Source: Caulobacteraceae bacterium (GTDB taxonomy: Bacteria; Pseudomonadota; Alphaproteobacteria; Caulobacterales; Caulobacteraceae). From it: DNA of 64,000 bases. The stretch is from the NCBI GenBank assembly GCA_036272595.1, contig DATAYM010000017.1, positions 49,128 through 113,127 on the forward strand, given 5' to 3'. A program made the position numbers and the translations under genes. The notes beneath the pieces are model-generated. The model worked only from the letters and a program-made list of their open reading frames with translations, was not told where the DNA came from and made no database searches. This document shows positions 33,255 through 46,505 of this stretch, piece after piece (within the stretch, counting starts at the first letter, position 1; each line of letters begins with the position of its first letter).

Positions 33255-33451
33255 CCCCCGACGTTCGAATGCGCCCGGCGGTAGACGTGCTCATAGAGAT
33301 TGGCGGTGACCGCTAGGGTTTGGCGGGATTTCACGGGATTTCGTGACACAAGGTGGGATTCGCAGCGGCTGCTCAGAGCCTTCTGAGAACCTTCAAAGAC
33401 CCCTTTCAAAAAATTGACCCGAGCGCCGCCCGTATGATTTGCTCGGGGCTA

Positions 33452-34069
33452 TCAGGTGGGTGGGGGGTCTTCCCAGTCAGCATGGGCGGCCCGGGCCGAG
33501 GGGCGCAGCCCGGCTTCTGACATACGGTCGAGGTTATCGCGCGCGACCCGCTCCTGATGGTCCTGGTGTGCCTTGAAGGCCGCCGCGTCGATCACAGCCT
33601 TCTGCAGGCGGGCGATATCGTAATCGCGCCAAACCACGTAACCGGTCCGGGTCACAACCAGCGTGCCGAGGAAGCCGATTGCACCGGATAGAACTCTCAG
33701 GACCGGCTCTGGCCATCCGACCGAGTGCCGGAGCGAATCCGGGATCGAGCGGCCGAAGATCGCGTCGTTTCCGACGACGACAAGCCCTATGATCAACAGG
33801 AGGAAAGCCGCAACAACGGCAAAAATGACCAGATACTCCTGGGTCAGGTCGACGATGGCCGCGGTAAGGCGTTCTCGCCGGTTGCGGTCGATCGATTCCC
33901 AGCTGAGCGATGGCATGGTGCGGTTCAGACGCACCAACAGGCCGGCCGCGATGATCGAGAGCGGCGACGTGATGACCTGAGCCGAGTTCAGGAGCCGCTC
34001 AAGCGAGACCTGCCACCCGAACAGACCGCCTACGGCCAGGCAAACCAGAAGAGTGGCCGCAGTTCCCAT
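33452..34069 (-). CDS. Multi-pass membrane protein, gene 2 of a coupled pair
   Basis: Several hydrophobic segments (LLVCLAVGGLFG; PLSIIAAGLLV; YLVIFAVVAAFLLLIIGLVVVG; VLSGAIGFLGTLVV); TAATG overlap with upstream gene. Confidence 0.75.
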   Translation of the reverse strand: MGTAATLLVCLAVGGLFGWQVSLERLLNSAQVITSPLSIIAAGLLVRLNRTMPSLSWESIDRNRRERLTAAIVDLTQEYLVIFAVVAAFLLLIIGLVVVGNDAIFGRSIPDSLRHSVGWPEPVLRVLSGAIGFLGTLVVTRTGYVVWRDYDIARLQKAVIDAAAFKAHQDHQERVARDNLDRMSEAGLRPSARAAHADWEDPPPT

Positions 34070-35094
34070 TAAGCATCAATCTTTCCATCCTGAACAAATC
34101 GAGAATACACGGTCCGCAGCTGGTCGGCCACATTGTCGAAATCCAGCAGCGTGCTGCCTTGGTGGGGCACCGAGAATGGCATCCGGGTGCGAAGGATTGC
34201 GTCGCCGTCCGAGAGACGCCCGTCCTTGCCCTCGATCTGCACCCTCGCGTCGCTCATGTCGGCGATGTCGTTGGCGAGTTCCTTGATCTGCCGCTTGCTC
34301 TCGGCGGTCCGCCTACCGCGTACGGCCAGGGATGCGTCGGCGGTGATGTACTCGCCGGGCCCGAGGGCTTTGATCAAAGACTCGGTCTTGGCGGAGCCTA
34401 GGATGGCCTCCCAGACCGGCTTGGCTTGTTCGGAGCGCAGGGCAGCGTCCTCGACGCGGCGCCTGGTCTGGACCTCGCGAGTTGGCCCGTCGGCGACGAC
34501 ACCAACAACGGCCGGGATGGTGCGTCCGGTGACCCGTAGTTTTTGAATGTCTCCGACATCGCCGACCGACCTGTCGAACTCGGCCTGCAGCCGGAAGGAC
34601 AGCATCGGATCGACAGTCTTGGTGCGCTCCTTAAGGAGCCAGTTGAGGTAGGCGTGGATCCGGTCTGAATCCATTGCCTGGGTCTTGAGGAAAAACAGGT
34701 GGTCACCGATCGCCATCCAGTACGCCAGGCCGCGGATGAATTGTGATCCGGTCGGTGCCTTACGTTCTTCCAGGTCGAACACCTCGGCGAGGGTGATGTT
34801 CGAAAGTTGCTGGGTCGAGGCCTTGAGGCGCAAGAGCGCCTGAAGGCCTTTCTCCTCCGAGTAGCAGAACTCGCCGTAGATTGCGGAGGTCAGGTCTGCG
34901 ACGCGGTTGAGCATCATCTCGCCGCCGAATTGGTCCTGGAGTTGGAAGACCCGATCTTCGACGCGCTGTGACAGCGAAGCGCCGGCGGTGTCCACCGTCT
35001 CAAGCGCCTGGCGGCAAAGGCCCTCAAGCGGCCACGCGACGGGGCCGTCGGCCTGGAACCGCCGATAATGCACCATGTGATATACGGTCGTCAT
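34069..35094 (-). CDS. Soluble hypothetical protein (341 aa), gene 1 of a coupled pair
   Basis: Long open frame, no TM segment, no recognisable catalytic motif. Confidence 0.8.
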   Translation of the reverse strand: MTTVYHMVHYRRFQADGPVAWPLEGLCRQALETVDTAGASLSQRVEDRVFQLQDQFGGEMMLNRVADLTSAIYGEFCYSEEKGLQALLRLKASTQQLSNITLAEVFDLEERKAPTGSQFIRGLAYWMAIGDHLFFLKTQAMDSDRIHAYLNWLLKERTKTVDPMLSFRLQAEFDRSVGDVGDIQKLRVTGRTIPAVVGVVADGPTREVQTRRRVEDAALRSEQAKPVWEAILGSAKTESLIKALGPGEYITADASLAVRGRRTAESKRQIKELANDIADMSDARVQIEGKDGRLSDGDAILRTRMPFSVPHQGSTLLDFDNVADQLRTVYSRFVQDGKIDA

Positions 35095-35177
35095 CGCCCA
35101 CCCCGAGTCGCTACGCGAGTATCCCGCATTTCCTACATATACTACAGGCTGTAGCCTGCCCGGCCGAAAGGGTCGAC

Positions 35178-35594
35178 ATGAAGCTCAGCGACTTCATCGA
35201 AGAGACACTCTACGAGATCGCGGTGGGCGTGAAGGCTGCCCGCCTCCGGGCAAGAGACCTGGTGGCCATCACGCCCTCAAGGCTGAACGGGACAGGCATC
35301 GACGAGAAGAGCTACGTCGACTTTGATGTGTCGATCGTGGTCTCAGAGGCGGACGCCTCCAAGCGAGGAGCGGGCGGCCGCCTCGGCGGCGATATCCAGG
35401 TGGCCGCCATCGCTAAGGTTAGCCTTGGCGCCGGCGGGAGCGCCGAGACGAGCAGCGACTCAAGGTCCGAGCAGACGCACAGGGTCAGCTTCAAGGTGCC
35501 GGTCTATCTTCACGCCAACTACTTCGGGAACCCGGCGACGGCCCAGGAAGCCGAGGAGTTTCTGAACTCGCGCGCGGCTTCAGGTGGACCATAG
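35178..35594 (+). CDS. Hypothetical protein, Trypco-like
   Basis: MKLSDFIEETLYEIAVGVK...VDFDVSIV...G-rich...HRVSFKVPV. Confidence 0.65.
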   Translation: MKLSDFIEETLYEIAVGVKAARLRARDLVAITPSRLNGTGIDEKSYVDFDVSIVVSEADASKRGAGGRLGGDIQVAAIAKVSLGAGGSAETSSDSRSEQTHRVSFKVPVYLHANYFGNPATAQEAEEFLNSRAASGGP

Positions 35595-35788
35595 CGGCGT
35601 TCTTCGCCTTCTGGGCGCTCGGCGCGCTGGTGTTCGGCGTCTTCCATGTTCGCTGGCTGCGCCGCCATGCCGCTAAGGGCGAGAAGGTTCCGGAGCCGGT
35701 CTTTCAATTCGTGTTCGGTGTGATCCTAGCCCCGATCGCGCTGGCGATCGGGGCGGCTCTCGCCTGGACGTTGCTGCGTGCGCTCTAG
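35591..35788 (+). CDS. Small two-TM protein, no canonical start found
   Basis: IAAFFAFWALGALVFGVFHVRWLRRH...VFGVILAPIALAIGAALAWTLLRAL*; overlaps the upstream stop. Confidence 0.4.
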   Translation: MAAFFAFWALGALVFGVFHVRWLRRHAAKGEKVPEPVFQFVFGVILAPIALAIGAALAWTLLRAL

Positions 35789-35793
35789 GTCGG

Positions 35794-36306
35794 TCAGTTC
35801 AGCGGGCGGGTAAACGACCGCATCCTTCCGTTCACGCATCGCGTGGTGATCATGAACCGCCTGAGGTACACCCGCCCGTCGCGCCCGACGACGTAGCGAT
35901 CGACCTCACCGCCGGCGCCACCATCGCAGGTAGCCTGCACCGGCTCTCCCGATCTGCCGGTCAGAGGCTCCACGTCGCCCCTCATGACATAGAAGTAGCG
36001 GCCGAAGCCCGAGTAGCCGTTGGCCCAGTCCCGACCATAGATCATTGCCACCGTCTTGGTGGGCGCGCCGGGGACCGAGAAGAAATCCTGCCGGTTCATA
36101 GCTTCGAACGATGACGAACTCGAAAGCGTGAAACAGCCGATCGGCTTGCCAGCGCCCGAGTCCGCCGACTTCGCTGCGTAGAGGTGCTCCTCGGTGTCGC
36201 AGGCCAGGACCCCAGGACCGTTTGGATGATAGAGCGGGTCGGAGAGCGCCCTTCCGGCAACTGCGCAAGCCAAGACGACCAGTGCGGCGAAGCCACCCTG
36301 TCTCAT
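35794..36306 (-). CDS. Secreted hypothetical protein
   Basis: Signal peptide MRQGGFAALVVLACAVAGRALS; four Cys in the mature region. Confidence 0.65.
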   Translation of the reverse strand: MRQGGFAALVVLACAVAGRALSDPLYHPNGPGVLACDTEEHLYAAKSADSGAGKPIGCFTLSSSSSFEAMNRQDFFSVPGAPTKTVAMIYGRDWANGYSGFGRYFYVMRGDVEPLTGRSGEPVQATCDGGAGGEVDRYVVGRDGRVYLRRFMITTRCVNGRMRSFTRPLN

Positions 36307-36370
36307 CGGCTCCCCGAGCCAGCGACCCAACATCTGCGTCAAGCACGCTTTGCGCGTCATACCCTTGCGA

Positions 36371-36829
36371 TCAATTCGAATTCGTCCGGCACTGGTAGTG
36401 ATCGATCTCGTCCAGCGTTGCGCCCTCGACCATGACTTGCGAGCTGCCTTGCGCTCCCGCTGGAAGGTTGGTCGAGTTGGTCATCGCATTGGCGAGCAGC
36501 GTATTGGCCTTCGAATAGAAGGCGCAGTCGGCCTCCACATACCCCAGCTCTTGGCCGCTGTTGTTTTGAAAGACGGCGGGAAAAATGACATAGTCGGAAG
36601 ACAATCGTGGACGTCCAAGCGTGACGGTCAGCGCCTGGGCCGCAGGCGCCGCCGGCACCAACGCGGACGCCACACTCGCGCCACCAGCTGGCGGGGCGAC
36701 CACCCCGCTCGCGGTCCCCTGGCTTTCATGGAGCGCGTACCCGATGACGAGGCCCGCGACCCCACCGACGACGAGACCTGTCGCGAAATTGCCGCGGCGC
36801 TTTGCCGGTGGCGTCGCTAATTCCGTCAT
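36371..36829 (-). CDS. Membrane-anchored protein with FxLYD-like domain
   Basis: N-terminal TM; VFQNNSGQELGYVEADCAFYSKANTLL...NLPAG. Confidence 0.7.
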   Translation of the reverse strand: MTELATPPAKRRGNFATGLVVGGVAGLVIGYALHESQGTASGVVAPPAGGASVASALVPAAPAAQALTVTLGRPRLSSDYVIFPAVFQNNSGQELGYVEADCAFYSKANTLLANAMTNSTNLPAGAQGSSQVMVEGATLDEIDHYQCRTNSN

Positions 36830-36903
36830 CGCCGCTCCCCAGTAGGTTGTTGGAGTCTAGGTCGCGGAACATCGCTGCGCAACCTGCGATGCCGCTGGAG
36901 GGC

Positions 36904-36933
36904 GAGCGGCGCGGGCTCCAACCCGCGCCGCTC
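36904..36933. other. Perfect 12-bp hairpin with loop complementary to a nearby site
   Basis: gagcggcgcggg-ctccaa-cccgcgccgctc; ttggag at 36850-36855. Confidence 0.7.
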
Positions 36934-37017
36934 TAGTCGCCACGCCCAGCCCCCCCCGCAGGGGCTGTCGCGCCCTCGGCAGCCGGAGAGATTACCGCCG
37001 AGAGGGCGTGACGATGT

Positions 37018-38823
37018 TCAACCCGGGAGCGCTCCCCGGTTCCAGCGAAAGTCCACGGCGGCGGCCTTTTCGACGCGGCTCACCGACGTTCCTTGCTCGG
37101 CCTTGACCACGATCGTCCCTAGGAGTTGGGACGAGGAAGGCTGTGAGGCAGGGGCCGGTGCGACCGCCGGCGACGCGGCCCTGACTAAGAGCGTCGGCAA
37201 GTGGCCGGCGGCTCGATCATGGGTTTGGCCTGGTGCGGCCATCGCGTTGCTGATCGCGATATGAAGCTTCGAAAGCGACGGCAAGCCCGGCAGCGACCGG
37301 CGGTCCGGTGTCGGCTTCCAATCTGCCGGCGACCGGTGGCCGGCCGGCGAACCAGGGCTTGGCGACGGGCGGCCACCCGGCACACTACGGCCTGGCTGCT
37401 GCTGGCCGCCAGGCGCGGGGGCCCTCGCCAGACCATCAATCAGTCGGGTGATCGCGCCAAGCGCTGGGAACTGGATAGAGAGCGCCGCGCCGCCGGCGTT
37501 TAGCAGCGTTTGAAGCCACTTCGGCATTTTCGACTCTAGGTCGGTGAAGGCCTTCTCGATCTTCCGACAACCGTCCTCCAAGCCTTTGACGATTTCGTCC
37601 CAGTGATTGTGTAACTCGACCAAGGCGAAGATGAACAAGCCGATCACGACAATGGCGGCCTCGATCGCCAAAGCGATGAGGCCAATCGGGTTCGCGTCCA
37701 TCGCGATATCGAGCAAAGTCATGGCGTCGGTGAGGCCGAAGACCGCCGGTATGAGGCTGGCGACCAGCACGGCCGCGCGGACCGATGCGATGCCGATGCT
37801 AACGATGCTTCCGGTCGCCGAAACCAAAGCCACGGCGGCTTGCGTCGCCAAGACCGCAGACAAGCCGATGAACGCCCCTTTCACCACATTGGTGTTGTCC
37901 GAGAGCTTGAGCAGCTTATCAGCGAGATCAACCGCCTTGACGATGATCTTCTCGATCTTCGGAAGCATAGCCACGAACTGGTCTGCGAGCTTGGTCACCG
38001 CGTCGGTGAAATGCTTCACGTCGTCGTCGTTGAGGCTCTCTATCCACTTCGTGACCTTATCGATCGCGTCTGTAAGCTTGGGGATCAGGGCAATGCCAAT
38101 CCGATTGCCGAGGCCAAGGACCGCCAGGCCCATGTTTTGTTTGGCTTCGATAAATTTCTTGGAGGCCTCGGCGTCCTCCTTGGTCATGACAGCATGAGCC
38201 CGTTGGAGCTGGTCCATCAGGGCGGCGATCTCTTCGCGCGGCGCTCTCAGCAGCGGCGCCATGTCGACCCAGGACCGGCTGAATAGTCCCTGGGCGGCGA
38301 CCGCCAGCGCGCTTCGGTTTTTGATCCGCTCCATGCCGTCGAGAATGCGCGTGAACATCGCGCCAGGGTCGTTTGAGAGGGCCTTGATCTCCTTCATGCT
38401 GACGCCGGCCAGCCGCAGCGCTTCGATCTCCTGCTTATTGCCCTTCAGCGCGTTGCCGACGTGCAGCTCCATCATCGCGAAGGCATGGTTCAACCCATCC
38501 GCGTCGACGCCGAGCTGTTTCGCGGCCCAGCCCAAGCGCTGCATGGCCTCGACGCTGACACCGGTCTTCTCTGAGCTGCGCAGCAGGGATTCGCCCATCT
38601 CCGCGACGCGGTTGGTGACGTCCCAAATCGCGCGGCCAGCCTCGGCCGCAGCGCCGGCGATGGCGGCGCCGCCGATCAGCTCGGTAAGGCCGAGCTTGGT
38701 GAACGCCGCGTGAAGCTTCGAGGTGCGCTGTTCGAGCGCCTGCAGGCCGGCGCCGATGCGCCGCAAGGGCGCGGTTGCGCGGTCCAACGCCTCGACAACC
38801 AGGTTAAGCCTAAGATCCTTCAT
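37018..38823 (-). CDS. Phage tail tape measure protein-like
   Basis: MKDLRLNLVVEALDRATAPLR; SEKTGVSVEAMQRLGWAAKQLG; ANPIGLIALAI; follows the tail chaperone. Confidence 0.85.
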   Translation of the reverse strand: MKDLRLNLVVEALDRATAPLRRIGAGLQALEQRTSKLHAAFTKLGLTELIGGAAIAGAAAEAGRAIWDVTNRVAEMGESLLRSSEKTGVSVEAMQRLGWAAKQLGVDADGLNHAFAMMELHVGNALKGNKQEIEALRLAGVSMKEIKALSNDPGAMFTRILDGMERIKNRSALAVAAQGLFSRSWVDMAPLLRAPREEIAALMDQLQRAHAVMTKEDAEASKKFIEAKQNMGLAVLGLGNRIGIALIPKLTDAIDKVTKWIESLNDDDVKHFTDAVTKLADQFVAMLPKIEKIIVKAVDLADKLLKLSDNTNVVKGAFIGLSAVLATQAAVALVSATGSIVSIGIASVRAAVLVASLIPAVFGLTDAMTLLDIAMDANPIGLIALAIEAAIVVIGLFIFALVELHNHWDEIVKGLEDGCRKIEKAFTDLESKMPKWLQTLLNAGGAALSIQFPALGAITRLIDGLARAPAPGGQQQPGRSVPGGRPSPSPGSPAGHRSPADWKPTPDRRSLPGLPSLSKLHIAISNAMAAPGQTHDRAAGHLPTLLVRAASPAVAPAPASQPSSSQLLGTIVVKAEQGTSVSRVEKAAAVDFRWNRGALPG

Positions 38824-38959
38824 AGAGCCGCTCAGCCTGTGTTCGCCACATCAGGAGTTCGTCGACGTCCATTTCCCAAAGCTCGGAGGTCGGGAAATGA
38901 AAGACGACGGCCACGTCGCCTAAAACGTCTCGCCAGTTTCCTGGCGCCCAGGAAAAAAA
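38810..38959 (-). CDS. GpE'/gpT-like -1 frameshift extension of the tail assembly chaperone
   Basis: WRDVLGDVAVVFHFPTSELWEMDVDELLMWRTQA in the -1 frame after a T7 slippery run. Confidence 0.8.
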   Translation of the reverse strand, partial: FFSWAPGNWRDVLGDVAVVFHFPTSELWEMDVDELLMWRTQAERLYEGS

Positions 38960-39213
38960 CCGCCGACGATCTCGCCCAAGCCCTCGATATCTTCCAGATC
39001 CAGCTCATCGACCGCACTGCCTGAAAGGCCTGTCAAAGCTCCGATCAGGGAAAGGCTTTTGGCGATGGAGCCGTCCGTTCGGTCGAGCATCCGCAGGTCC
39101 TTGGACTTCAGCCGGCGAATGGGAACCTCGGTTATTTCTTCCTGGCGTTCCTCGCCGCCCTGCACCCTGGTGCGCAGGACGATCGGATGCTTCAGCTGAT
39201 AGGTGTCGCTCAC
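38920..39213 (-). CDS. Tail assembly chaperone (Mu gp41 / P2 gpE-like)
   Basis: QLKHPI...RRLKSKDL...LIGALTGLS...VDELDLEDI...GGFF. Confidence 0.85.
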   Translation of the reverse strand: MSDTYQLKHPIVLRTRVQGGEERQEEITEVPIRRLKSKDLRMLDRTDGSIAKSLSLIGALTGLSGSAVDELDLEDIEGLGEIVGGFFPGRQETGETF

Positions 39214-39404
39214 GGGCGCTGTCCCTTTCGTTGCTTGGTTGCAAGGAAATCGGCTTCCGACACTCCAAGCGCCCTGCACGCCGCCTGTTCATCCACTGTC
39301 AGTTTGGTGGCCGGTGCTGGGGCCGCTGCCTTGAGGAAGGCGGCTTCGGAAACGCCGATCGCCGCACAGGCAGCGCGCTGTTCGTCCGTCAGGCCCGTCG
39401 TCAT
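39210..39404 (-). CDS. Small protein with two tandem Mu scaffold C-terminal-like motifs
   Basis: LTDEQRAACAAIGVSEAAFL and LTVDEQAACRALGVSEADFL. Confidence 0.65.
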   Translation of the reverse strand: MTTGLTDEQRAACAAIGVSEAAFLKAAAPAPATKLTVDEQAACRALGVSEADFLATKQRKGQRP

Positions 39405-39802
39405 GCGGCCGGCCCCGATTGGGGTGACAGGCCGGTGGGTTCGATAGTCAGCGTGACCTCCGCGTTGCTCACCCTGAAAACGAAACACGGATGAAGTCCT
39501 CGACGGTGCCAGGCATTCATGGGGTTTGCGGCAGCTTCGGACCAGCGGACGGTTGCGTAGGGTGCGCCAACCCCAAACTCTATGTGCGAGAGCACGCCAA
39601 GGACGGGCTCAGCGCCAATCGAGATCGGAGCCGACCGGAGATAGTCTCTGATCGCCGTGATAACCGGGCCAGCGTCGGCAAGTTGCTGGCCATCGCTGTC
39701 GATCGCAGAGATTGGACTTAGGCGGACCGAAACCGAACGGGCCGAGAGCAGGCGTTGGGATGCCGCGAATGTCGCCTGCCATCTCTTTTCACCATTGTTC
39801 AT
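39401..39802 (-). CDS. Hypothetical protein, possible remote Mu prohead protease remnant
   Basis: DAGPVITA...PI...GVLSHIE...YATVRWSEAAA...RGLHPCF loosely follows the Mu_Pro order; catalytic motifs not evident. Confidence 0.4.
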   Translation of the reverse strand: MNNGEKRWQATFAASQRLLSARSVSVRLSPISAIDSDGQQLADAGPVITAIRDYLRSAPISIGAEPVLGVLSHIEFGVGAPYATVRWSEAAANPMNAWHRRGLHPCFVFRVSNAEVTLTIEPTGLSPQSGPAA

Positions 39803-39972
39803 TTGGCACTCTCGTTCTCTGTCGCCAGAATTTTTCGGACCACTCTCACCGGCACCCCGCTGTCCCGGGCGATCGTGTCGACCGACCGCCCTCCTAGGGA
39901 TGTTCGCCTGACCTTGGTCGCCGCGGCTTTGAAGGCCTTCCGACGGCACAGCCGGAGATTTTTCGGTTTCAT
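39799..39972 (-). CDS. Small basic HTH-like protein (57 aa, below ORF-track cutoff)
   Basis: MKPKNLRL...GRSVDTIARDSGVPVRVVRKIL; ATGA overlap with the downstream ORF. Confidence 0.55.
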   Translation of the reverse strand: MKPKNLRLCRRKAFKAAATKVRRTSLGGRSVDTIARDSGVPVRVVRKILATENESAK

Positions 39973-40005
39973 GTGCTGATTGCCGGGTTACGGGATGACG
40001 GCTGG

Positions 40006-40389
40006 TCATTTGATAAGGCCCTCGCGGCGCAGCTTGGCGCGCTTCATGCGGACCCAGCGGGAAGAGCATCCGAAGACTTTAGCGATGTCGCCGGCCGAGC
40101 GATCGGTCAAACAGGCTTCTCTGATGAGGGCAGCCCGGCCGGCCGGCCCCGAGGAAACATCAAACTGTCCCGAGCCGAACTCGGAGGCGACAATCTCCGC
40201 ATTCTCCTGGCCGACGAGCTTCGAAAAGATGTTGTGCGGTTCCGGGCTCGACGGGACGTAGACCTGTCGGCCGCCGAAGGCCTCCTGGATCTTAAGCGCC
40301 ACGAGGCCGCCTAAGCGCAGCGACACAAAGCCGACCAGATCAGTCGGCGCGTCGGCGTCTGTGGTGATCTCTTTCGCCCCTCGCGTCAT
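40006..40389 (-). CDS. Mor/C family transcription activator
   Basis: ALKIQEAFGGRQVYVP; SAGDIAKVFGCSSRWVR. Confidence 0.8.
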   Translation of the reverse strand: MTRGAKEITTDADAPTDLVGFVSLRLGGLVALKIQEAFGGRQVYVPSSPEPHNIFSKLVGQENAEIVASEFGSGQFDVSSGPAGRAALIREACLTDRSAGDIAKVFGCSSRWVRMKRAKLRREGLIK

Positions 40390-40605
40390 GGCGCCACAAA
40401 GCGGGAATTAGTTCCGGCGGAACCACCCTGAATAAATTCAGGGTCGGCCTATGTGCCGTTGCCGTTCAACGCCCGCGCCCCCGGTAGATGATCGCCTTCC
40501 AATCCAGTCGATCGTCCTCTGTCGCTCGGGCTAGCGCGTGAGAAGCCTTGAGAGGCGTGAGAAGCCCGTTGACGATCCGCGACGAGGAAGTAGGTCATCT
40601 TGGCC

Positions 40606-40965
40606 CTAAGAGGCCGCCACGGTCGCGCGCTGGCGCAGCCTTAGGGCCAGACGACCAACGGCAGATTTGCTGGGGAAGCGACCTGAGCCGAACGCCTCGG
40701 CTCCCAGCCGCGCGATCTCCGCCATCGAGACCAGGCCGTCCCGGTCAGTGATGAAAGCCATAACAGCGGGTTCGCGTTCGAAGGGTGACCGCCGGCCGGC
40801 TTCGCGCGGCGGCAAGAGCTGGTGGTGGACCGCCGCCACCAAGTCGACCGACCACGCGCGCCCAGGGCCGAACTCAGCGGCGATCTCGACGGCCATCGCC
40901 GAGAAGGTGCGCTCGCGGCTCGCGGCGACGAAGGCGCGGATGTCGGGATCGGTCGGATCAGGCAT
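40606..40965 (-). CDS. Phage hypothetical protein, HTH-like
   Basis: DPDIRAFV...SMAEIARLGAEAFGSGRFPSKSAVGR; overlaps the gp16-like stop. Confidence 0.6.
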   Translation of the reverse strand: MPDPTDPDIRAFVAASRERTFSAMAVEIAAEFGPGRAWSVDLVAAVHHQLLPPREAGRRSPFEREPAVMAFITDRDGLVSMAEIARLGAEAFGSGRFPSKSAVGRLALRLRQRATVAAS

Positions 40966-41371
40966 CCGCGTGCGCCTTTCGCTCGACCATCGCCTTGAGG
41001 GCGGTGATCACCGGACCGGCCTTACTCGCGTTCAGAAATCGGAGCGCCGAGACCTTCGCCTGCCGTTCCAGAAATGCATTAAGGCTGGCCTCGGTTGGTG
41101 CGTCCGCGTAGGCGGTCCAGAGCTTGCGGATCGCGGCCACTTGGCCAGGCGATGCCATGCCGTCGCGCTCGCCGAACGATCGGCGGCGCGACGAGCTGGT
41201 GAAGCCCAGCCCTCGGAACCTGTCCATGACGGCATCGAAGCCGCGACCGTCCAAGTGGCTCGCGCTATGGGTGCCCCCGAAGTTTTCGAGGATCGCCCGA
41301 TAGTCGTCATCGCCAAGGCCCAGCTGGGCCTTGGCGACTCTCAGCAGGGCCAGCTTAGACTTGTGCAGCAT
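40958..41371 (-). CDS. Mu gp16/GemA-like protein (DUF1018)
   Basis: KLALLRVAKAQLGLGDDDYRAIL; ASPGQVAAIRKLW; VITALKAM. Confidence 0.85.
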   Translation of the reverse strand: MLHKSKLALLRVAKAQLGLGDDDYRAILENFGGTHSASHLDGRGFDAVMDRFRGLGFTSSSRRRSFGERDGMASPGQVAAIRKLWTAYADAPTEASLNAFLERQAKVSALRFLNASKAGPVITALKAMVERKAHADA

Positions 41372-41663
41372 GCTGATCCGCGTGGAGGTCTTCTTGAATC
41401 TTCGTGACCCTCGCTATCGTCTCGCGCTGGAGCGCCGCGGCGCCAGCCAGCAGCGCGTAAATCGTCTCATCATAGCTCAAAGAAACACGGGCAAATTCCG
41501 GCGTCAGCGCGTAGTCCGCGGCCAGGTCCATGATCCTTCCAACATGCTCAAACGCCACATTCGCGATCCAGAGGTCGGCGGCGAGACGCCCGGCCGGTAC
41601 CCGTGGATCGCCGCTCGCCGGCGGACGATCGGCATTAGATTCGATCACTTGCGGGTTGGTCAT
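41355..41663 (-). CDS. Phage hypothetical protein
   Basis: Open frame in the operon between MuB and gp16-like. Confidence 0.55.
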   Translation of the reverse strand: MTNPQVIESNADRPPASGDPRVPAGRLAADLWIANVAFEHVGRIMDLAADYALTPEFARVSLSYDETIYALLAGAAALQRETIARVTKIQEDLHADQHAAQV

Positions 41664-41672
41664 GGGTGCCTT

Positions 41673-42500
41673 TCAGGCTGCTAAGAAGAGAAAATCACGC
41701 ACAAGTTCGGCGGTGACGGGTTGCCGATCAGCTTCGATATTCAGTTCGCTTAGAAGGTCGGCCGCGCGGCGGAAGCTGCGGTCGGCGCGGCCGGTTCCGA
41801 AGTGGTGGATAACAAGTTGAAGTGCATTGGGATCAACCAAGCCGCCGGCTTCGAAGAAGAGCTTCAGGTCATCATCCCTCACGTCTGCATACGTGAGGGT
41901 CTCGACATAGAGCGCACGGTCGGCGACCGCCGCCGATAGGACACTTTGTCCGCGCCGATCGCTCTTCAAGATGAACTCGTTGTTGCCGACGAAAATCAGG
42001 CCGATGGGAAAAGGTGAATAGCCGCCCGTCGCATCGTTCAAGAACCGCAAGACCTCGATCGCTTCAGGCGACAGGTTTTGCGCTTCATCAAATATGATCG
42101 TGTAGTGCGGGCTCCATTGCTCGGCCGATTCACGTTGTTGCTTGCGGCTGCCGTCAAAGCCCGCCCATTCACAGATCACGCCAAACATTCGGCCCCGGAG
42201 CATGACGTAATTGGTCGGGGTGGTGTCGCGATGGGCGGATGGGCAAACCTCGTAAATGGCCTCAAGCGCGAGCTGGAGCGCCGCGGTGGACTTCAGCCCG
42301 CCCTTGGGTCCAGGCGGAACAGACACCACCGCCACCTTGCATTCTTCCGCGGCCTGGAACCGTCCTATCGCCGTGCTTTTGCCGATGCCGGGAGGTCCGG
42401 AAAAGACCGCTATGCGCCGTCGATCGTGAGATTTTTGCATGTGTGCGAGAAGGGTGCTGACGACCGAGGTCGCCACGTATCCGCTGTCGTCAGCCGACAT
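41673..42500 (-). CDS. MuB-like AAA+ transposition ATPase
   Basis: Walker A GPPGIGKS; Walker B IIFDEAQNL; LIFVGN; overlaps the transposase end. Confidence 0.88.
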   Translation of the reverse strand: MSADDSGYVATSVVSTLLAHMQKSHDRRRIAVFSGPPGIGKSTAIGRFQAAEECKVAVVSVPPGPKGGLKSTAALQLALEAIYEVCPSAHRDTTPTNYVMLRGRMFGVICEWAGFDGSRKQQRESAEQWSPHYTIIFDEAQNLSPEAIEVLRFLNDATGGYSPFPIGLIFVGNNEFILKSDRRGQSVLSAAVADRALYVETLTYADVRDDDLKLFFEAGGLVDPNALQLVIHHFGTGRADRSFRRAADLLSELNIEADRQPVTAELVRDFLFLAA

Positions 42501-44457
42501 TGCGTTGCTCTCCCATGAGGCGGGCGGTGCGGCGGTCGCGCAGGGCTCTCGCGCGCTCTTCCGGCGTCTGAGCGGGCGTCGGCTCGCTGGCGCTGCCGAT
42601 GGCCAAGACCAGCGCTGTCGCAGCCCCGCCGGTGTCCAGACGGTCGACCCGCCCGGCGACTGTCGTCACAGGCAGCCGAGCGACCATTCGGCGCTTGATG
42701 GCTATAGGGTCAGCCGGCGGCGCTTCTTGTTCGAGTAGAGCCACATGACGCCGCTGGCCGGCCTGTCGGCGCGCGGATTCGAGTGCGCCTTCTTCCCACA
42801 GGGCGGGCATGGCGTAGTCTCGTTCGAGATACGCCCAACTGCCGTCCCGCTGCTGAAACAGCGGCTCGCCCCCGCGACGCCAGGGCAGCGCCAGCGCTAC
42901 GGTCGTCCCGGCCGGCAGCGCAGACAGCGCCGGGTGGTGAAATCCTATGCCGTCGATCGAGACACGGCCGTCCCTGGCCTTGCGGGTGTCGTGTTTGCAG
43001 AAGGCCGCGTCCAGCGCGAGCGGGTCAACACGAATTGGCCGCCAGCCGGCTTGGACTTTTTCGCGGAGCCATTCGTCTGGCGAGCGGCCGCCCCATTGGC
43101 CGCCGACCGGCCTGGCGTTGAAGTCCTCGACCATCATCGCGTGGTCGGTGCAGAACTCATCCCAAGAGCCCGGATAGGGCTTCGGCGGCCTTCCAACGGT
43201 CTGGGTCTTCTTGTGCATCCGCTCGCCGCCGGCGTAGCCTGGGAGCTGGGCATAGACATAGCGGTCCATCATCGCGAAGCGGCCCTCGATCGGCTTGGCC
43301 GAGGCGTTGTAGGGCCGCGCATAAATGACGGTGCGAACGCCGGCCGGGTTCACCAGCTGCAGGGCGCCTCGGAGCTTCTCCTCCAGGCCGGCGAACTCAG
43401 AACCGTTGTCGAGATAGAGCGCGCGCGGAAAGCCCCATAGCGGCTGCTGCGTCATGGCGATAAACGCCTCGATGACATGCTCCTGCCGGATGCCTTCACC
43501 CTCGGCGCACATGACGAGATGGCAAAAGATTCGGCCCGTTCCAGCGTCCACAAAGCCGATGTTTTTGCCCCACGTGGCGGAGCCGTCCGGGCGGGTCACG
43601 ATCACGTCGATCGGCTTCACGTCCGCGATGACGATCTCCATCGGCGCATAGCAGGTCCAGTCTCGACGGATGCGCGGCTTGGCGTCGTCGAAGGCCTTGG
43701 CGTTATTCTTTTTGAGGTTGACGACGCGGTATTCGGAGAATCGCTCAACGTGGCGGCGGGACAGTCGATAGGCCGCTGGCGCCAGCTCGACGCCGCGGGC
43801 CTCGCACAACTCCAACAGCCGGAATTCGAGCAGGCGGCGGACTTCGTTGACGCCTGACGCTTCGGCTGTCGATGCCCACAGCCCTTTGGCCTCGACCACG
43901 ACCAAGCCGCCAATTTGAGCAAGTAAGTCTTCGGGTTGTCCGGCCGCGCGGAACGCTCGGTCAAAGACACGGGAGACCACGACGCGAGGCTTGCCGGCGT
44001 CTTGGGGCAGCTTTCGCGCTAGCCCCGCCATTCCATGCTTCTCGTAGAGGTCAATCCAGCGCTGAAGGGTGCGCTCGCTATGCTTGCCCTTGGCGGCCTC
44101 GACGCGGATCTCCGCCGCCCGCCCCGCTGTCCCCCGCTCATGGCCGATGGCCGCCTCGATCGCCTTGAACCTGGCCGCCACGCGTTCGCTCTGATTCTTG
44201 AAGACCGCCAGCCGCTGCGCCGTCGGCGCCAGGACGGACAGGGCGGTGCTCATGGGCCGTTCAAGGGCCGCTGAGAGGCTTCTGAGAGACACCTGATAGC
44301 ATCGGCCCGAACGACCACCACGGCCCTTCACGGTGCGAACCTCAAGGGCGATGCCCCGCCATGATTCGGCGGCGACGGCCGCGGTTGCCGATCGACGGCC
44401 AATGCCGGCCATCGCGGCGACCTCGCCGACGCTCAGCCAATCGCCCCCAGCCGCCAT
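42490..44457 (-). CDS. MuA-like DDE transposase
   Basis: N-terminal HTH (WLSVGEVAAMAG...GRGGRSGRCY); IADVKPID, LYLDNGSEF, KPIEGRF triad. Confidence 0.9.
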   Translation of the reverse strand: MAAGGDWLSVGEVAAMAGIGRRSATAAVAAESWRGIALEVRTVKGRGGRSGRCYQVSLRSLSAALERPMSTALSVLAPTAQRLAVFKNQSERVAARFKAIEAAIGHERGTAGRAAEIRVEAAKGKHSERTLQRWIDLYEKHGMAGLARKLPQDAGKPRVVVSRVFDRAFRAAGQPEDLLAQIGGLVVVEAKGLWASTAEASGVNEVRRLLEFRLLELCEARGVELAPAAYRLSRRHVERFSEYRVVNLKKNNAKAFDDAKPRIRRDWTCYAPMEIVIADVKPIDVIVTRPDGSATWGKNIGFVDAGTGRIFCHLVMCAEGEGIRQEHVIEAFIAMTQQPLWGFPRALYLDNGSEFAGLEEKLRGALQLVNPAGVRTVIYARPYNASAKPIEGRFAMMDRYVYAQLPGYAGGERMHKKTQTVGRPPKPYPGSWDEFCTDHAMMVEDFNARPVGGQWGGRSPDEWLREKVQAGWRPIRVDPLALDAAFCKHDTRKARDGRVSIDGIGFHHPALSALPAGTTVALALPWRRGGEPLFQQRDGSWAYLERDYAMPALWEEGALESARRQAGQRRHVALLEQEAPPADPIAIKRRMVARLPVTTVAGRVDRLDTGGAATALVLAIGSASEPTPAQTPEERARALRDRRTARLMGEQRNVG

Positions 44458-44670
44458 CTATGCAGCCGCCGCGCTCTCTCGCAGGATGATCCTGCGCAGT
44501 TCTTTGGCCGCCGGGCCATTCTTCAACCCAGCCAAGGCGCGGTGAGCATATGAAGGGGTCACGCTGTTGCGAAGGCACCAGGCGCGGAGCGAATCGCCTT
44601 GTTCGGTGAAGCCGGCGCGCACCCTGCGCACCAAGGCTTCGCTTCCGTTCAACTCGATTGTGTGCTGCAT
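44458..44670 (-). CDS. Ner/Cro-like DNA-binding protein
   Basis: VRAGFTEQGDSLRAWCLRNSVTPSYAHRALAG; divergent from the repressor. Confidence 0.75.
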   Translation of the reverse strand: MQHTIELNGSEALVRRVRAGFTEQGDSLRAWCLRNSVTPSYAHRALAGLKNGPAAKELRRIILRESAAAA

Positions 44671-44686
44671 TGCCGGCCCCGCGAGT

Positions 44687-44730
44687 TTGTCCACAGGTGG
44701 ACGGTATTGACCGCTTGTCCACACGTCAAC
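44687..44730. promoter_or_regulatory. Putative immunity operators
   Basis: ttgtccaca at 44687 and 44715; gtccac-ag-gtggac dyad between divergent ner and repressor. Confidence 0.55.
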
Positions 44731-44743
44731 ACGGCTGCCGTCA

Positions 44744-45253
44744 ATGCTTGAGGATCAGGTTCGCCGTATTCGAGAGGCGCTAGGCGCGGCCAACGACTCT
44801 GAGTTGGCGGAGAAGCTAGGGCTGGGTCGATCGGCGGTATCGAGGTGGAAGGAGCGCGGGGTAATTCCGGCGAAGTTTCGCTTCCTGGCTGAACGCGACG
44901 GCCGCCATGCTATTGAGCATGGCTCCCAGTTCATCGAACACGACCGCCTATACGGCCATGCCGATCATCACTATTGGCTGAGGGCCGCTCTGCAATTCAT
45001 TCCTCCGGGATATGGCGCGAAACTGGCGGCGCCAGACCGCGCGCGACTGCTTGAGTTCGTGCTCACCCGGCTTATGGGAGCCGCCGCCGACGCCACTGTC
45101 CGAGAACTCGGAAAGCGCCGCTGCGAGAGCGAGGAAGACCTTCAGGCGTTGCTAGAGGTTCTCGGTTCCGGCACCAGCTCGGAGACGGGCTCGATGTACG
45201 CGGACCGCATAGCAAGGGTCCTCGCTGAAGGCCTCCCAGCAAACCCTACCTAG
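44744..45253 (+). CDS. Phage CI-type HTH repressor
   Basis: RIREALGAANDSELAEKLGLGRSAVSRWKERGVIP. Confidence 0.8.
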   Translation: MLEDQVRRIREALGAANDSELAEKLGLGRSAVSRWKERGVIPAKFRFLAERDGRHAIEHGSQFIEHDRLYGHADHHYWLRAALQFIPPGYGAKLAAPDRARLLEFVLTRLMGAAADATVRELGKRRCESEEDLQALLEVLGSGTSSETGSMYADRIARVLAEGLPANPT

Positions 45254-46182
45254 GGGATCGCTGGAAGTGCTGTGACCTCGCCGATCCGCGCATGCCAAGC
45301 CTTGTCGCCCGCCTCGATCCCCATCATGTCGCCCTGCCTGGTCAGCCGAAATCGGCCAGTCCCAGTGCTTGCGGGCGAAAGGGCGGCCAGTGTGTTCGCT
45401 GTTTCGACCGAGAGAAAGGCCGCGGCTGTATCGACGTGCTCCATGGCCAGCCGCATCGTCTCTAGCGCCGCGCCGTGGCCTGCCAGCTTCTCCGCGCAGA
45501 TGACTGGGGCAAGCGCCGCGGTCCAGGCGCGCAGGTCGGGGTGGCCGGCATCGGCGATCATGTCGGTCAAGATCACCCGCGCCTCCTGCAGCCGCTCTCT
45601 GTCTCGCCAGGTTGACCGAAGGAAGGCCGCACCCCTGATGAACCCGATATCCCGCAGCGTGCGATCGACGTCGATTTGCACCGGGCCGCCCCCGCGCGTC
45701 TTGTCGAAGATGCCCTTCCGGATCGCGGCCATCTTGGCCATGCGGTTCTGCAGTTCATCGACGCGATCGACGCGCGAGCTGACCCGGTCGATCCAGTCAA
45801 TCCGCGCTTGAAGCCGGCCTAGCGCCTGGGCTAGCTCGGCGGCGTTCTGGCGCTCGCGCTCTTCCTGCAGGAAGAGGTTCTCGGCAATGTTTGACGCGGT
45901 CTGCCAGCCAGCCTGGTCCGGAGCATTGCGGCCCAAGGCAAGCCACCGCGATCCGGATGGGAGGCACACTGGACAAGGCGCCATGTCCTTAAGAGGACGA
46001 AGGCGACTATCGATCTCAACCGGGCTGGCGAGCACGACCAGTTCGCCCTCGGCCGGCGGCCGCTCCGTGCTGATGGTCGGGAACGTCTCCGGCTGTCCGG
46101 TGGACTTTACGTGTTCCAGGAAGCGCCTGCCGAGGGCGATGCCTGGATTGCTCGGATAGACGGGATTCGTTTCGAGGTTCAA
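45250..46182 (-). CDS. Hypothetical protein (310 aa) with CPVC motif and coiled coil
   Basis: Long open frame convergent on the repressor. Confidence 0.6.
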   Translation of the reverse strand: MNLETNPVYPSNPGIALGRRFLEHVKSTGQPETFPTISTERPPAEGELVVLASPVEIDSRLRPLKDMAPCPVCLPSGSRWLALGRNAPDQAGWQTASNIAENLFLQEERERQNAAELAQALGRLQARIDWIDRVSSRVDRVDELQNRMAKMAAIRKGIFDKTRGGGPVQIDVDRTLRDIGFIRGAAFLRSTWRDRERLQEARVILTDMIADAGHPDLRAWTAALAPVICAEKLAGHGAALETMRLAMEHVDTAAAFLSVETANTLAALSPASTGTGRFRLTRQGDMMGIEAGDKAWHARIGEVTALPAIP

Positions 46183-46505
46183 GCGCCGCTCCGAGCCTCA
46201 ACCGACAGAAGACTCCGTGGATCATGTATCCATCAGGCGAGCGGCACAAGAATGGGAGGGCGCGATCCGCTGGCCAGCACTTGGCCTGCGCAAAGCGGCC
46301 CGACTCCCCAATAGACTCCTCAATCTGCTGAGATCATTCTCACCACAGCTGATTTCATTGCGTTTTTCGCGGGCCTCTATTGAGGAGTCCCGGACCTCCT
46401 CAATAAGCTCCCGAAACCGGGCGCAAACCCAATCCGTATCAGCGAATTCCATCGCCAAAATCTAACGGCCGCTTCCGTCAATCTCAAAAAGCGCGCCCAG
46501 CGGAT

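Follow-up and report, generated by a model that had tools for sequence, protein, structure and literature searches.

The 64-aa protein o64, encoded on the minus strand of a 64,000-nucleotide stretch of Caulobacteraceae DNA (the window), is best read as a functional small protein composed of two predicted helix-turn-helix copies of the terminal module of Mu-type I/Z protease/scaffold proteins. Its gene is under purifying selection and lies in the late operon of a reduced Mu-like transposable element. By analogy with characterised satellite proteins, o64 may act as a multivalent mimic of the capsid-docking end of a helper phage scaffold, similar to CpmB, within a candidate Mu-type satellite; this reading is put forward tentatively, as plausible but somewhat short of probable.

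The o64 protein and the origin of its repeats

The o64 reading frame starts with an ATG at 39404, stops with a TGA at 39210 and translates as MTTGLTDEQRAACAAIGVSEAAFLKAAAPAPATKLTVDEQAACRALGVSEADFLATKQRKGQRP. Two motif copies with the shared pattern LT..E..AC.A.GVSEA.FL are joined by the ten-residue linker KAAAPAPATK, and the copies are identical at 13/20 residues and 39/60 bases. The top ungapped BLOSUM62 self-match of the protein scores 67, compared with 19.5 ± 4.1 (maximum 44) for shuffles of the same residues, none of 5000 of which reached at least 67. The translation and the shuffles thus bear out the initial annotation in its description of two motif copies and an Ala/Pro linker in a 64-aa ORF. 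The coordinates of the repeats and of all other features are collected in Table 1.

AlphaFold2, run on a four-sequence alignment, predicts two helix-turn-helix hairpins separated by a disordered linker, with a mean pLDDT of 70. A Foldseek search of the PDB with this model returns helix-turn-helix DNA-binding domains as its sole matches, all non-significant with E > 1, and the Pfam scan of o64 gives no match to a helix-turn-helix family; DUF7457 (PF24256) scores 17.3 bits, below its gathering threshold of 27. The coat-binding domain of P22 gp8 is a C-terminal helix-turn-helix that docks on the coat protein, and o64 is predicted to form two such hairpins; in gp8, unlike in o64, the unit occurs once and terminates a long scaffold. 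Between gp8 and o64 there is neither a sequence match nor a significant fold match by Foldseek.

Profile comparisons place the o64 repeats at the very end of Mu-type head maturation proteases. Specifically, Pfam PF10123 (Mu-like_Pro) matches o64 over profile positions 309–330 of 330 (E 2.1e-5), and its C-terminal motif LT.EE...C...G.SE..F is found twice; the whole-protein score, 24.7 bits, lies below the 25.2 cut-off. PHROG 328 (head maturation protease) matches over positions 308–338 of 339 with an E-value of 4.9e-7. A tblastn search of 50,697 phage records with o64 finds matches in Mu, D108 and SfMu, where 23 aa at 56% (E 0.3) fall at the 3′ end of the overlapping genes I and Z. Copy 2 together with the next three residues (ATK) is identical at 17/23 residues to the C-terminus of the I protein of contig L025, LTDEERAVCRALGHSEAEFLATK. 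The similarity to I/Z ends is genuine, although it rests on a short module. The N-terminal protease domain, and hence the conserved His and Ser of PF10123 proteins, is absent from o64.

A motif-based scan of IMG/VR yielded six contigs, five of which were read: three 34–41 kb contigs and two shorter fragments (5 and 20 kb). All five encode an I protein of 339–359 aa in which a protease domain is followed by a helical scaffold segment and a single motif at the extreme C-terminus, and the protease domains share the conserved elements D[YW][DE]H and YR[YF][LIV]SP (n = 5). These canonical I genes sit in portal–F–I–capsid modules, with a capsid or decoration gene coming after the I gene in four of the five contigs and the fifth, L026, being without annotation. 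Since all five I proteins end in this manner, in agreement with Pfam and PHROG, the earlier proposal that a single similar motif terminates Mu-type protease/scaffold proteins is correct.

The reduced element and its split I-like gene

The o64 gene belongs to a mini-Mu element delimited by imperfect inverted end motifs at 33296–33330 and 46453–46485, which are visible by eye; a generic inverted-repeat search did not single out the element ends, and no 5-bp target duplication was found at them. Downstream of the Mor-type activator, the late operon runs in the order 57-aa ORF, o134, o64, tail chaperone with a −1 frameshift, and tape measure, followed by two small genes and then the 341-aa/205-aa pair. 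The Pfam- and PHROG-annotated gene content of the element includes no terminase, portal, F, capsid, sheath, tube, baseplate or lysis gene, and its ~13 kb amount to roughly a third of the length of the full-size phage contigs (34–41 kb). Rather than lying between portal/F and major capsid genes, o64 is flanked by a pseudo-protease gene and the tail chaperone gene.

Table 1. Positions in the window of the reduced Mu-like element, its genes and the repeats of o64
Feature	Position	Strand	Evidence or remark
Mini-Mu element, about 13.2 kb	33288..46493 (approximate)		Imperfect inverted end motifs
Gene pair, 341 aa (PHROG 3482) and 205 aa (membrane-like)	33452-35094	-	Right arm of the element
Tape measure, 601 aa	37018..38823	-	Homologous to, and equal in length with, full contractile-tail modules
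Tail assembly chaperone, 97 aa from GTG 39213	38920..39213	-	Phage_TAC_7
o64, 64-aa gene with two I/Z C-terminal motifs	39210..39404	-	ORF, Pfam, PHROG, self-match, dN/dS
o64 motif copy 2, residues 35-54, LTVDEQAACRALGVSEADFL	39243..39302	-	Predicted hairpin H37-46/H50-61
o64 linker, residues 25-34, Ala/Pro-rich	39303..39332	-	Low pLDDT; least conserved segment among homologues
o64 motif copy 1, residues 5-24, LTDEQRAACAAIGVSEAAFL	39333..39392	-	Predicted helix-turn-helix hairpin H7-16/H20-27
o134, 133 aa from ATG 39802	39401..39802	-	Degenerate homologue of the Mu-like I N-terminal protease domain
57-aa helix-turn-helix-looking ORF, between the Mor-like gene and o134	39799..39972	-	GC3 0.70 in frame
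Mor/C-type late transcriptional activator	40006..40389	-	PHROG 836, E 1e-11
119-aa ORF	40965-40606	-	Just past the low end of the early region
Mu-type early region	40958..44724	-	
GemA	41371-40958	-	PF06252, E 2e-24
102-aa ORF	41663-41355	-	Early region
Transposition protein B	42500-41673	-	PHROG 296
Transposase A, Mu-type	44457-42490	-	PHROG 310, E 4e-38
Ner-like	44724-44458	-	
CI-type repressor, divergent	44744..45253	+	

Two tail genes follow o64. The chaperone gene carries a T7 slippery run at 38953–38959, from which a −1 frame extension reaches 38810, past the start of the tape-measure gene, and the same run is present in the chaperone gene of L002, a contig carrying a close relative of the operon. 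Both chaperone and tape measure are homologous to their counterparts in full contractile-tail modules of IMG/VR (sheath, tube, chaperone, tape measure), whose tape measures of 585 and 601 aa are 39–41% identical to that of the window; no motif gene is present between tube and chaperone in these canonical modules. A canonical I protease was found neither in the window's genome nor in 60 related genomes, in a search whose positive control matched in three phage records, and an exact-pattern search of viral contigs for a helper with the element end motif gave no match.

Upstream, o64 is coupled to o134 through overlapping stop and start codons (ATGA), and the o64 TGA in turn overlaps with the GTG that starts the tail chaperone gene (GTGA). 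The same type of overlap (ATGA) joins the stop of the 57-aa ORF, MKPKNLRL...RKILATENESAK, to the o134 start; this ORF has no family match. Longer readings of o134 (202 or 222 aa) were rejected, as GC3 is 0.52 in the added stretch and another frame there holds the 57-aa ORF.

The o134 protein is related to the protease domain of I proteins. An hhalign comparison of o134 and its homologues in L005 and L003 with the I N-terminal domain gives a probability of 84% (E 7e-6, 99 columns), and the single notable PDB match of the AlphaFold2 model of o134 (pLDDT 69, pTM 0.64) is the T4 prohead protease gp21 (Foldseek E 8e-3, probability 0.99). The conserved His (D[YW][DE]H) and Ser (YR[YF][LIV]SP), presumably catalytic in I proteins given their conservation and the known His/Ser chemistry of the fold, are absent from all three members examined, o134 and the L005 and L003 homologues. 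A protease homologue without these residues, next to o64, suggests that o134 and o64 together constitute a split I-like protein that lacks the scaffold segment, is probably inactive and has its terminal motif duplicated. The description of o64 as a stand-alone protein therefore holds in that it is a separate 64-aa polypeptide, but not in that its gene appears to be the distal half of a split I-like gene with o134 as the proximal half. As a separate observation, L003 (862-1260) and the equivalent part of L004, both from peat metagenomes, encode a second o134-type pseudo-protease, 27% identical, between tail chaperone and tape measure.

Measured against Mu gpI/gpZ (PF10123; PHROG 328), both o64 copies are homologous to the last ~20–25 residues and the neighbouring o134 to the N-terminal protease domain. 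Unlike gpI/gpZ, however, o64 has two motif copies instead of one on a separate 64-aa polypeptide, possesses no protease domain or helical scaffold, and has no portal/F and capsid neighbours, while o134 is devoid of the conserved His and Ser.

Motif arrays, relatives and competing readings

Arrays of two to six motifs, either stand-alone or fused to I-type N-domains, occur after a Mor/C-type activator in L008, L015–L018, L022, L023 and L024; in the window, the 57-aa ORF intervenes between the activator gene and the o134/o64 genes. These multi-copy proteins belong to reduced Mu-like late operons rather than to head modules, and no capsid gene is present on the stretch seen in any of these array-bearing operons (L008, L015–L018, L022–L024 and the window). 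L008 presents the order Mor, 227-aa protein, triple-motif protein, 68-aa protein, chaperone and tape measure, and L017/L018 the order Mor, 227-aa protein, triple-motif protein, gpD-like protein, 68-aa protein, chaperone, tape measure and host genes. L015/L016 contain a complete element of ~8.6 kb bounded by host genes, with repressor, A, B, GemA, Mor, a 231-aa protein, a protein with four motifs and a 177-aa protein. The fused form is found in L022 (activator, then I N-domain with three motifs), in L024 (activator, I N-domain with five to six motifs, chaperone, tape measure) and in L023, which starts with repressor, ParB, A, B, GemA, Mor, a chaperone-like protein and a tape measure and ends, after the tape measure, with a second activator and an I N-domain fused to four motifs.

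The short, scaffold-less I-like proteins of L022–L024 (P0003, P0005 and P0004) share with the window the N-domain family, a multiplied motif (three to six copies), the position after a Mor/C-type activator and the placement in one operon with tail chaperone and tape measure. In contrast to the window's lineage, which is split and has lost both residues, they are single polypeptides in which the conserved His is mostly kept and the Ser is variable. Among the loci examined, canonical phages have one motif copy and reduced elements have arrays, a rule that may be biased because the contexts were taken from the top o64 matches. A conserved family of 227–231 aa with coiled-coil ends always lies between Mor and the proteins with three or four motifs (L008:188-871, L015:9256-9951, L017:9242-9925); considered as I-domain homologues, these proteins of L008, L015 and L017 show no relation to the I N-domain and have no family assignment. 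The large multi-repeat matches P0010, P0018, P0025, P0029 and P0040 were discarded as unrelated low-complexity or eukaryote-type repeats.

A single context departs from this pattern. In L009–L011, a double-motif protein is encoded upstream of Mor, apparently among early or middle genes, a position that is odd for a head-assembly factor and that the capsid-decoy idea leaves unexplained. These proteins are 71 aa long (P0042, P0049; Plasticicumulans-type) and follow a conserved 365-aa protein. Because some arrays lie in early regions, the motif may have another binding partner, such as DNA (with o64 as a small helix-turn-helix regulator), the portal, the protease or the tail chaperone/tape measure, and o64 would then be a regulator or adaptor. 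The location upstream of Mor, the predicted hairpins, the Foldseek matches to helix-turn-helix DNA-binding domains and the translational coupling of o64 to the tail chaperone all agree with such a partner. Yet every one of those Foldseek E-values exceeds 1, canonical tail modules (sheath, tube, chaperone, tape measure) contain no such gene, and the canonical motif occupies the extreme C-terminus of a protease/scaffold encoded right before the capsid gene, which is the position that docks on the capsid protein in the scaffolding proteins studied so far (PMC5644958). Overall, a non-capsid partner appears unlikely. Capsid docking by the I/Z motif is nevertheless an assumption, made by analogy with P22, 80alpha and HK97, because arrays are also fused to I-type N-domains and occur in an early-region context.

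The fused arrays also bear on a second alternative, in which the motif would serve as an encapsidation tag and o64 or its partner o134 would enter the helper procapsid as cargo or as a protease inhibitor, leaving capsid geometry unaltered. Consistent with this, loading of GFP into capsids takes no more than a segment of the HK97 protease (PMC11626933), the o134 and o64 genes are coupled neighbours that are conserved together, and N-domain and motif arrays are joined in one protein in other elements. In the window's lineage, however, tag and protease-fold domain reside on separate polypeptides, and o64 alone would therefore carry nothing; we regard an encapsidation tag as decidedly unlikely.

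A word-based homologue search with o64 alone recovered only o64 itself, whereas an exhaustive phmmer search of 1.84 billion representatives returned 43 matches, to which a profile search added more. The stand-alone relatives P0002, P0009, P0047 and P0048 are 63–69 aa long and 62–72% identical, and their contigs keep the order of the window, with a 133–153 aa protein, a double-motif protein, a Phage_TAC_7 chaperone and a tape measure of 536–601 aa. Homologues in conserved gene order are present in L002, L003–L006 and L031/L032, and the split o134/o64 arrangement with its four-base overlaps is retained in four lineages. The two motif copies of P0009 (L003:197-394) are nearly identical (LTDEQRAVCAAIGVSEEAF twice), which suggests recent duplication or gene conversion within the array. 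Tape-measure scans of genome contigs and of metagenome contigs gave nothing new.

The family occupies at least two different chromosomal sites, since the module is found upstream of recA in both the window and L003/L004 and ends beside a short-chain dehydrogenase gene in L031. RecA of the window and of L003/L004 is 93% identical, within a genus range of 93–97%. An empty site in same-genus genomes could not be defined because of other mobile DNA upstream of recA in genome G003 and many paralogues of the flanking kinase. In that genome, the region upstream of recA (L019, G003:C7:1506000-1524000) carries a 1048-aa polymerase-like gene and an IS transposase, and the stretch upstream of recA has the appearance of an insertion hotspot. 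In L031 (4943-8656, minus strand), three cargo genes on the opposite strand separate the GemA region from the late activator; one of them encodes a 661-aa SbcC/AAA_23-like protein, and the set may represent a defence system.

Selection was estimated with L002 as the single reference. The o64 homologue of L002 is 68% identical at the amino-acid level, dN/dS is 0.35 over 63 codons and the motif positions are conserved; the corresponding values are 0.26 for the chaperone and 0.20 for the N-terminus of the tape measure. The C-terminal tail of o134 is nearly neutral, with dN/dS of 0.87 over 40 codons. Although the absence of most virion genes, the tape measure of L003 being split into two ORFs, this near-neutral tail and the recA-adjacent position in two species of the same genus would suit a decaying, functionless I remnant left in a defective prophage by deletion of head and tail genes, such a remnant is the weakest of the alternatives and very improbable because of the selection on o64 with its conserved motif positions, the overlaps and split arrangement preserved in four lineages, the different chromosomal site of the same module in L031 and the recurrence of analogous reduced operons in unrelated lineages, and transposase, B protein, repressor, chaperone frameshift site and the 601-aa tape measure are moreover intact.

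Putative mimicry of a helper scaffold and its implications

The mimicry of a helper scaffold end is the reading that we favour for o64, because two copies of the I/Z end sit in an element without capsid genes. The helper would be a full-size Mu-like phage developing in the same cell, and o64 would fill those sites of the helper major capsid protein in which the I/Z C-terminus is normally accommodated. Equipped with a pair of docking units joined by a short flexible linker, and lacking both scaffold helix and protease, o64 would compete with the helper scaffold/protease, cross-link neighbouring capsid subunits, or do both. The outcome would be a block of helper head assembly, the formation of small heads that fit the one-third-size genome, or a combination of the two. 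The same one-third ratio separates P4 from P2 and SaPI1 from 80alpha. Against a role in head size, small heads are not strictly needed by Mu-type headful packaging. Gene identity, homology, selection, synteny and recurrence are observed here, whereas the partner that o64 would bind, its competition with the helper and its influence on the capsid are inferred by analogy. The role as a capsid-assembly decoy or size redirector suggested in the initial annotation is consistent with the context, namely a capsid-less ~13-kb element, purifying selection and recurring arrays.

The closest functional parallel is CpmB of SaPI1, which imitates the helix-and-hook of the 80alpha scaffold; it binds at the scaffold's own capsid site and diverts assembly towards small capsids (PMC5644958). 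Like CpmB, whose helper counterpart is 80alpha gp46, o64 is a small, predicted helical protein of an element without capsid genes and would offer two docking ends per molecule; in both, the end that contacts or would contact the capsid resembles the scaffold C-terminus of a full-size phage, in the case of o64 through its 17/23 match to a canonical Mu-like I protein. The two proteins are unrelated in sequence. An N-terminal dimerisation domain makes CpmB bivalent, whereas o64 would owe its bivalence to a tandem duplication on one chain, and the backbone of SaPI1 relies on integrase-mediated excision, whereas the o64 element relies on Mu-type transposition. Furthermore, the capsid contacts and small capsids of CpmB were established by cryo-EM and genetics, while o64 is known here from its sequence.

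A broader proposal extends this mimicry to the arrays in general, in which tandem I/Z motifs, stand-alone or attached to a stripped protease domain, would be the capsid-hijacking device of an undescribed class of satellites that rely on Mu-type transposition for both replication and movement. Combined with a tail chaperone and tape measure matched to the helper, such arrays would allow a 9–13 kb mini-Mu to take the heads and tails of full-size Mu-like phages. We consider this extension doubtful, if conceivable. Scaffold-end mimicry is a proven satellite route to capsid theft and resizing, known in detail, to our knowledge, only for SaPI1 CpmB. This strategy seems to have evolved a second time, in Mu-like transposable elements, through multiplication of the helper's own docking motif and loss of the remaining scaffold. 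A literature search returned no published description of such reduced elements or of a role for the motif, nor, within the searchable literature, any description of satellites that use transposition instead of integrases.

Several facts about these elements are new. The o64 protein is one half of a split, scaffold-less and probably inactive I-like protein and is conserved under selection in several lineages; one-copy phages stand against array-bearing reduced elements; and the chaperone and tape measure of the element match those of full-size contractile-tail phages. If scaffold-end mimicry by o64 is true, it would identify the capsid-docking module of Mu-type scaffolds, hitherto unmapped, and the presence of multiple copies of the motif rather than one would provide a simple sequence signature that separates reduced parasitic elements from autonomous Mu-like phages. 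It would also support the existence of satellites based on transposition rather than on integrases.
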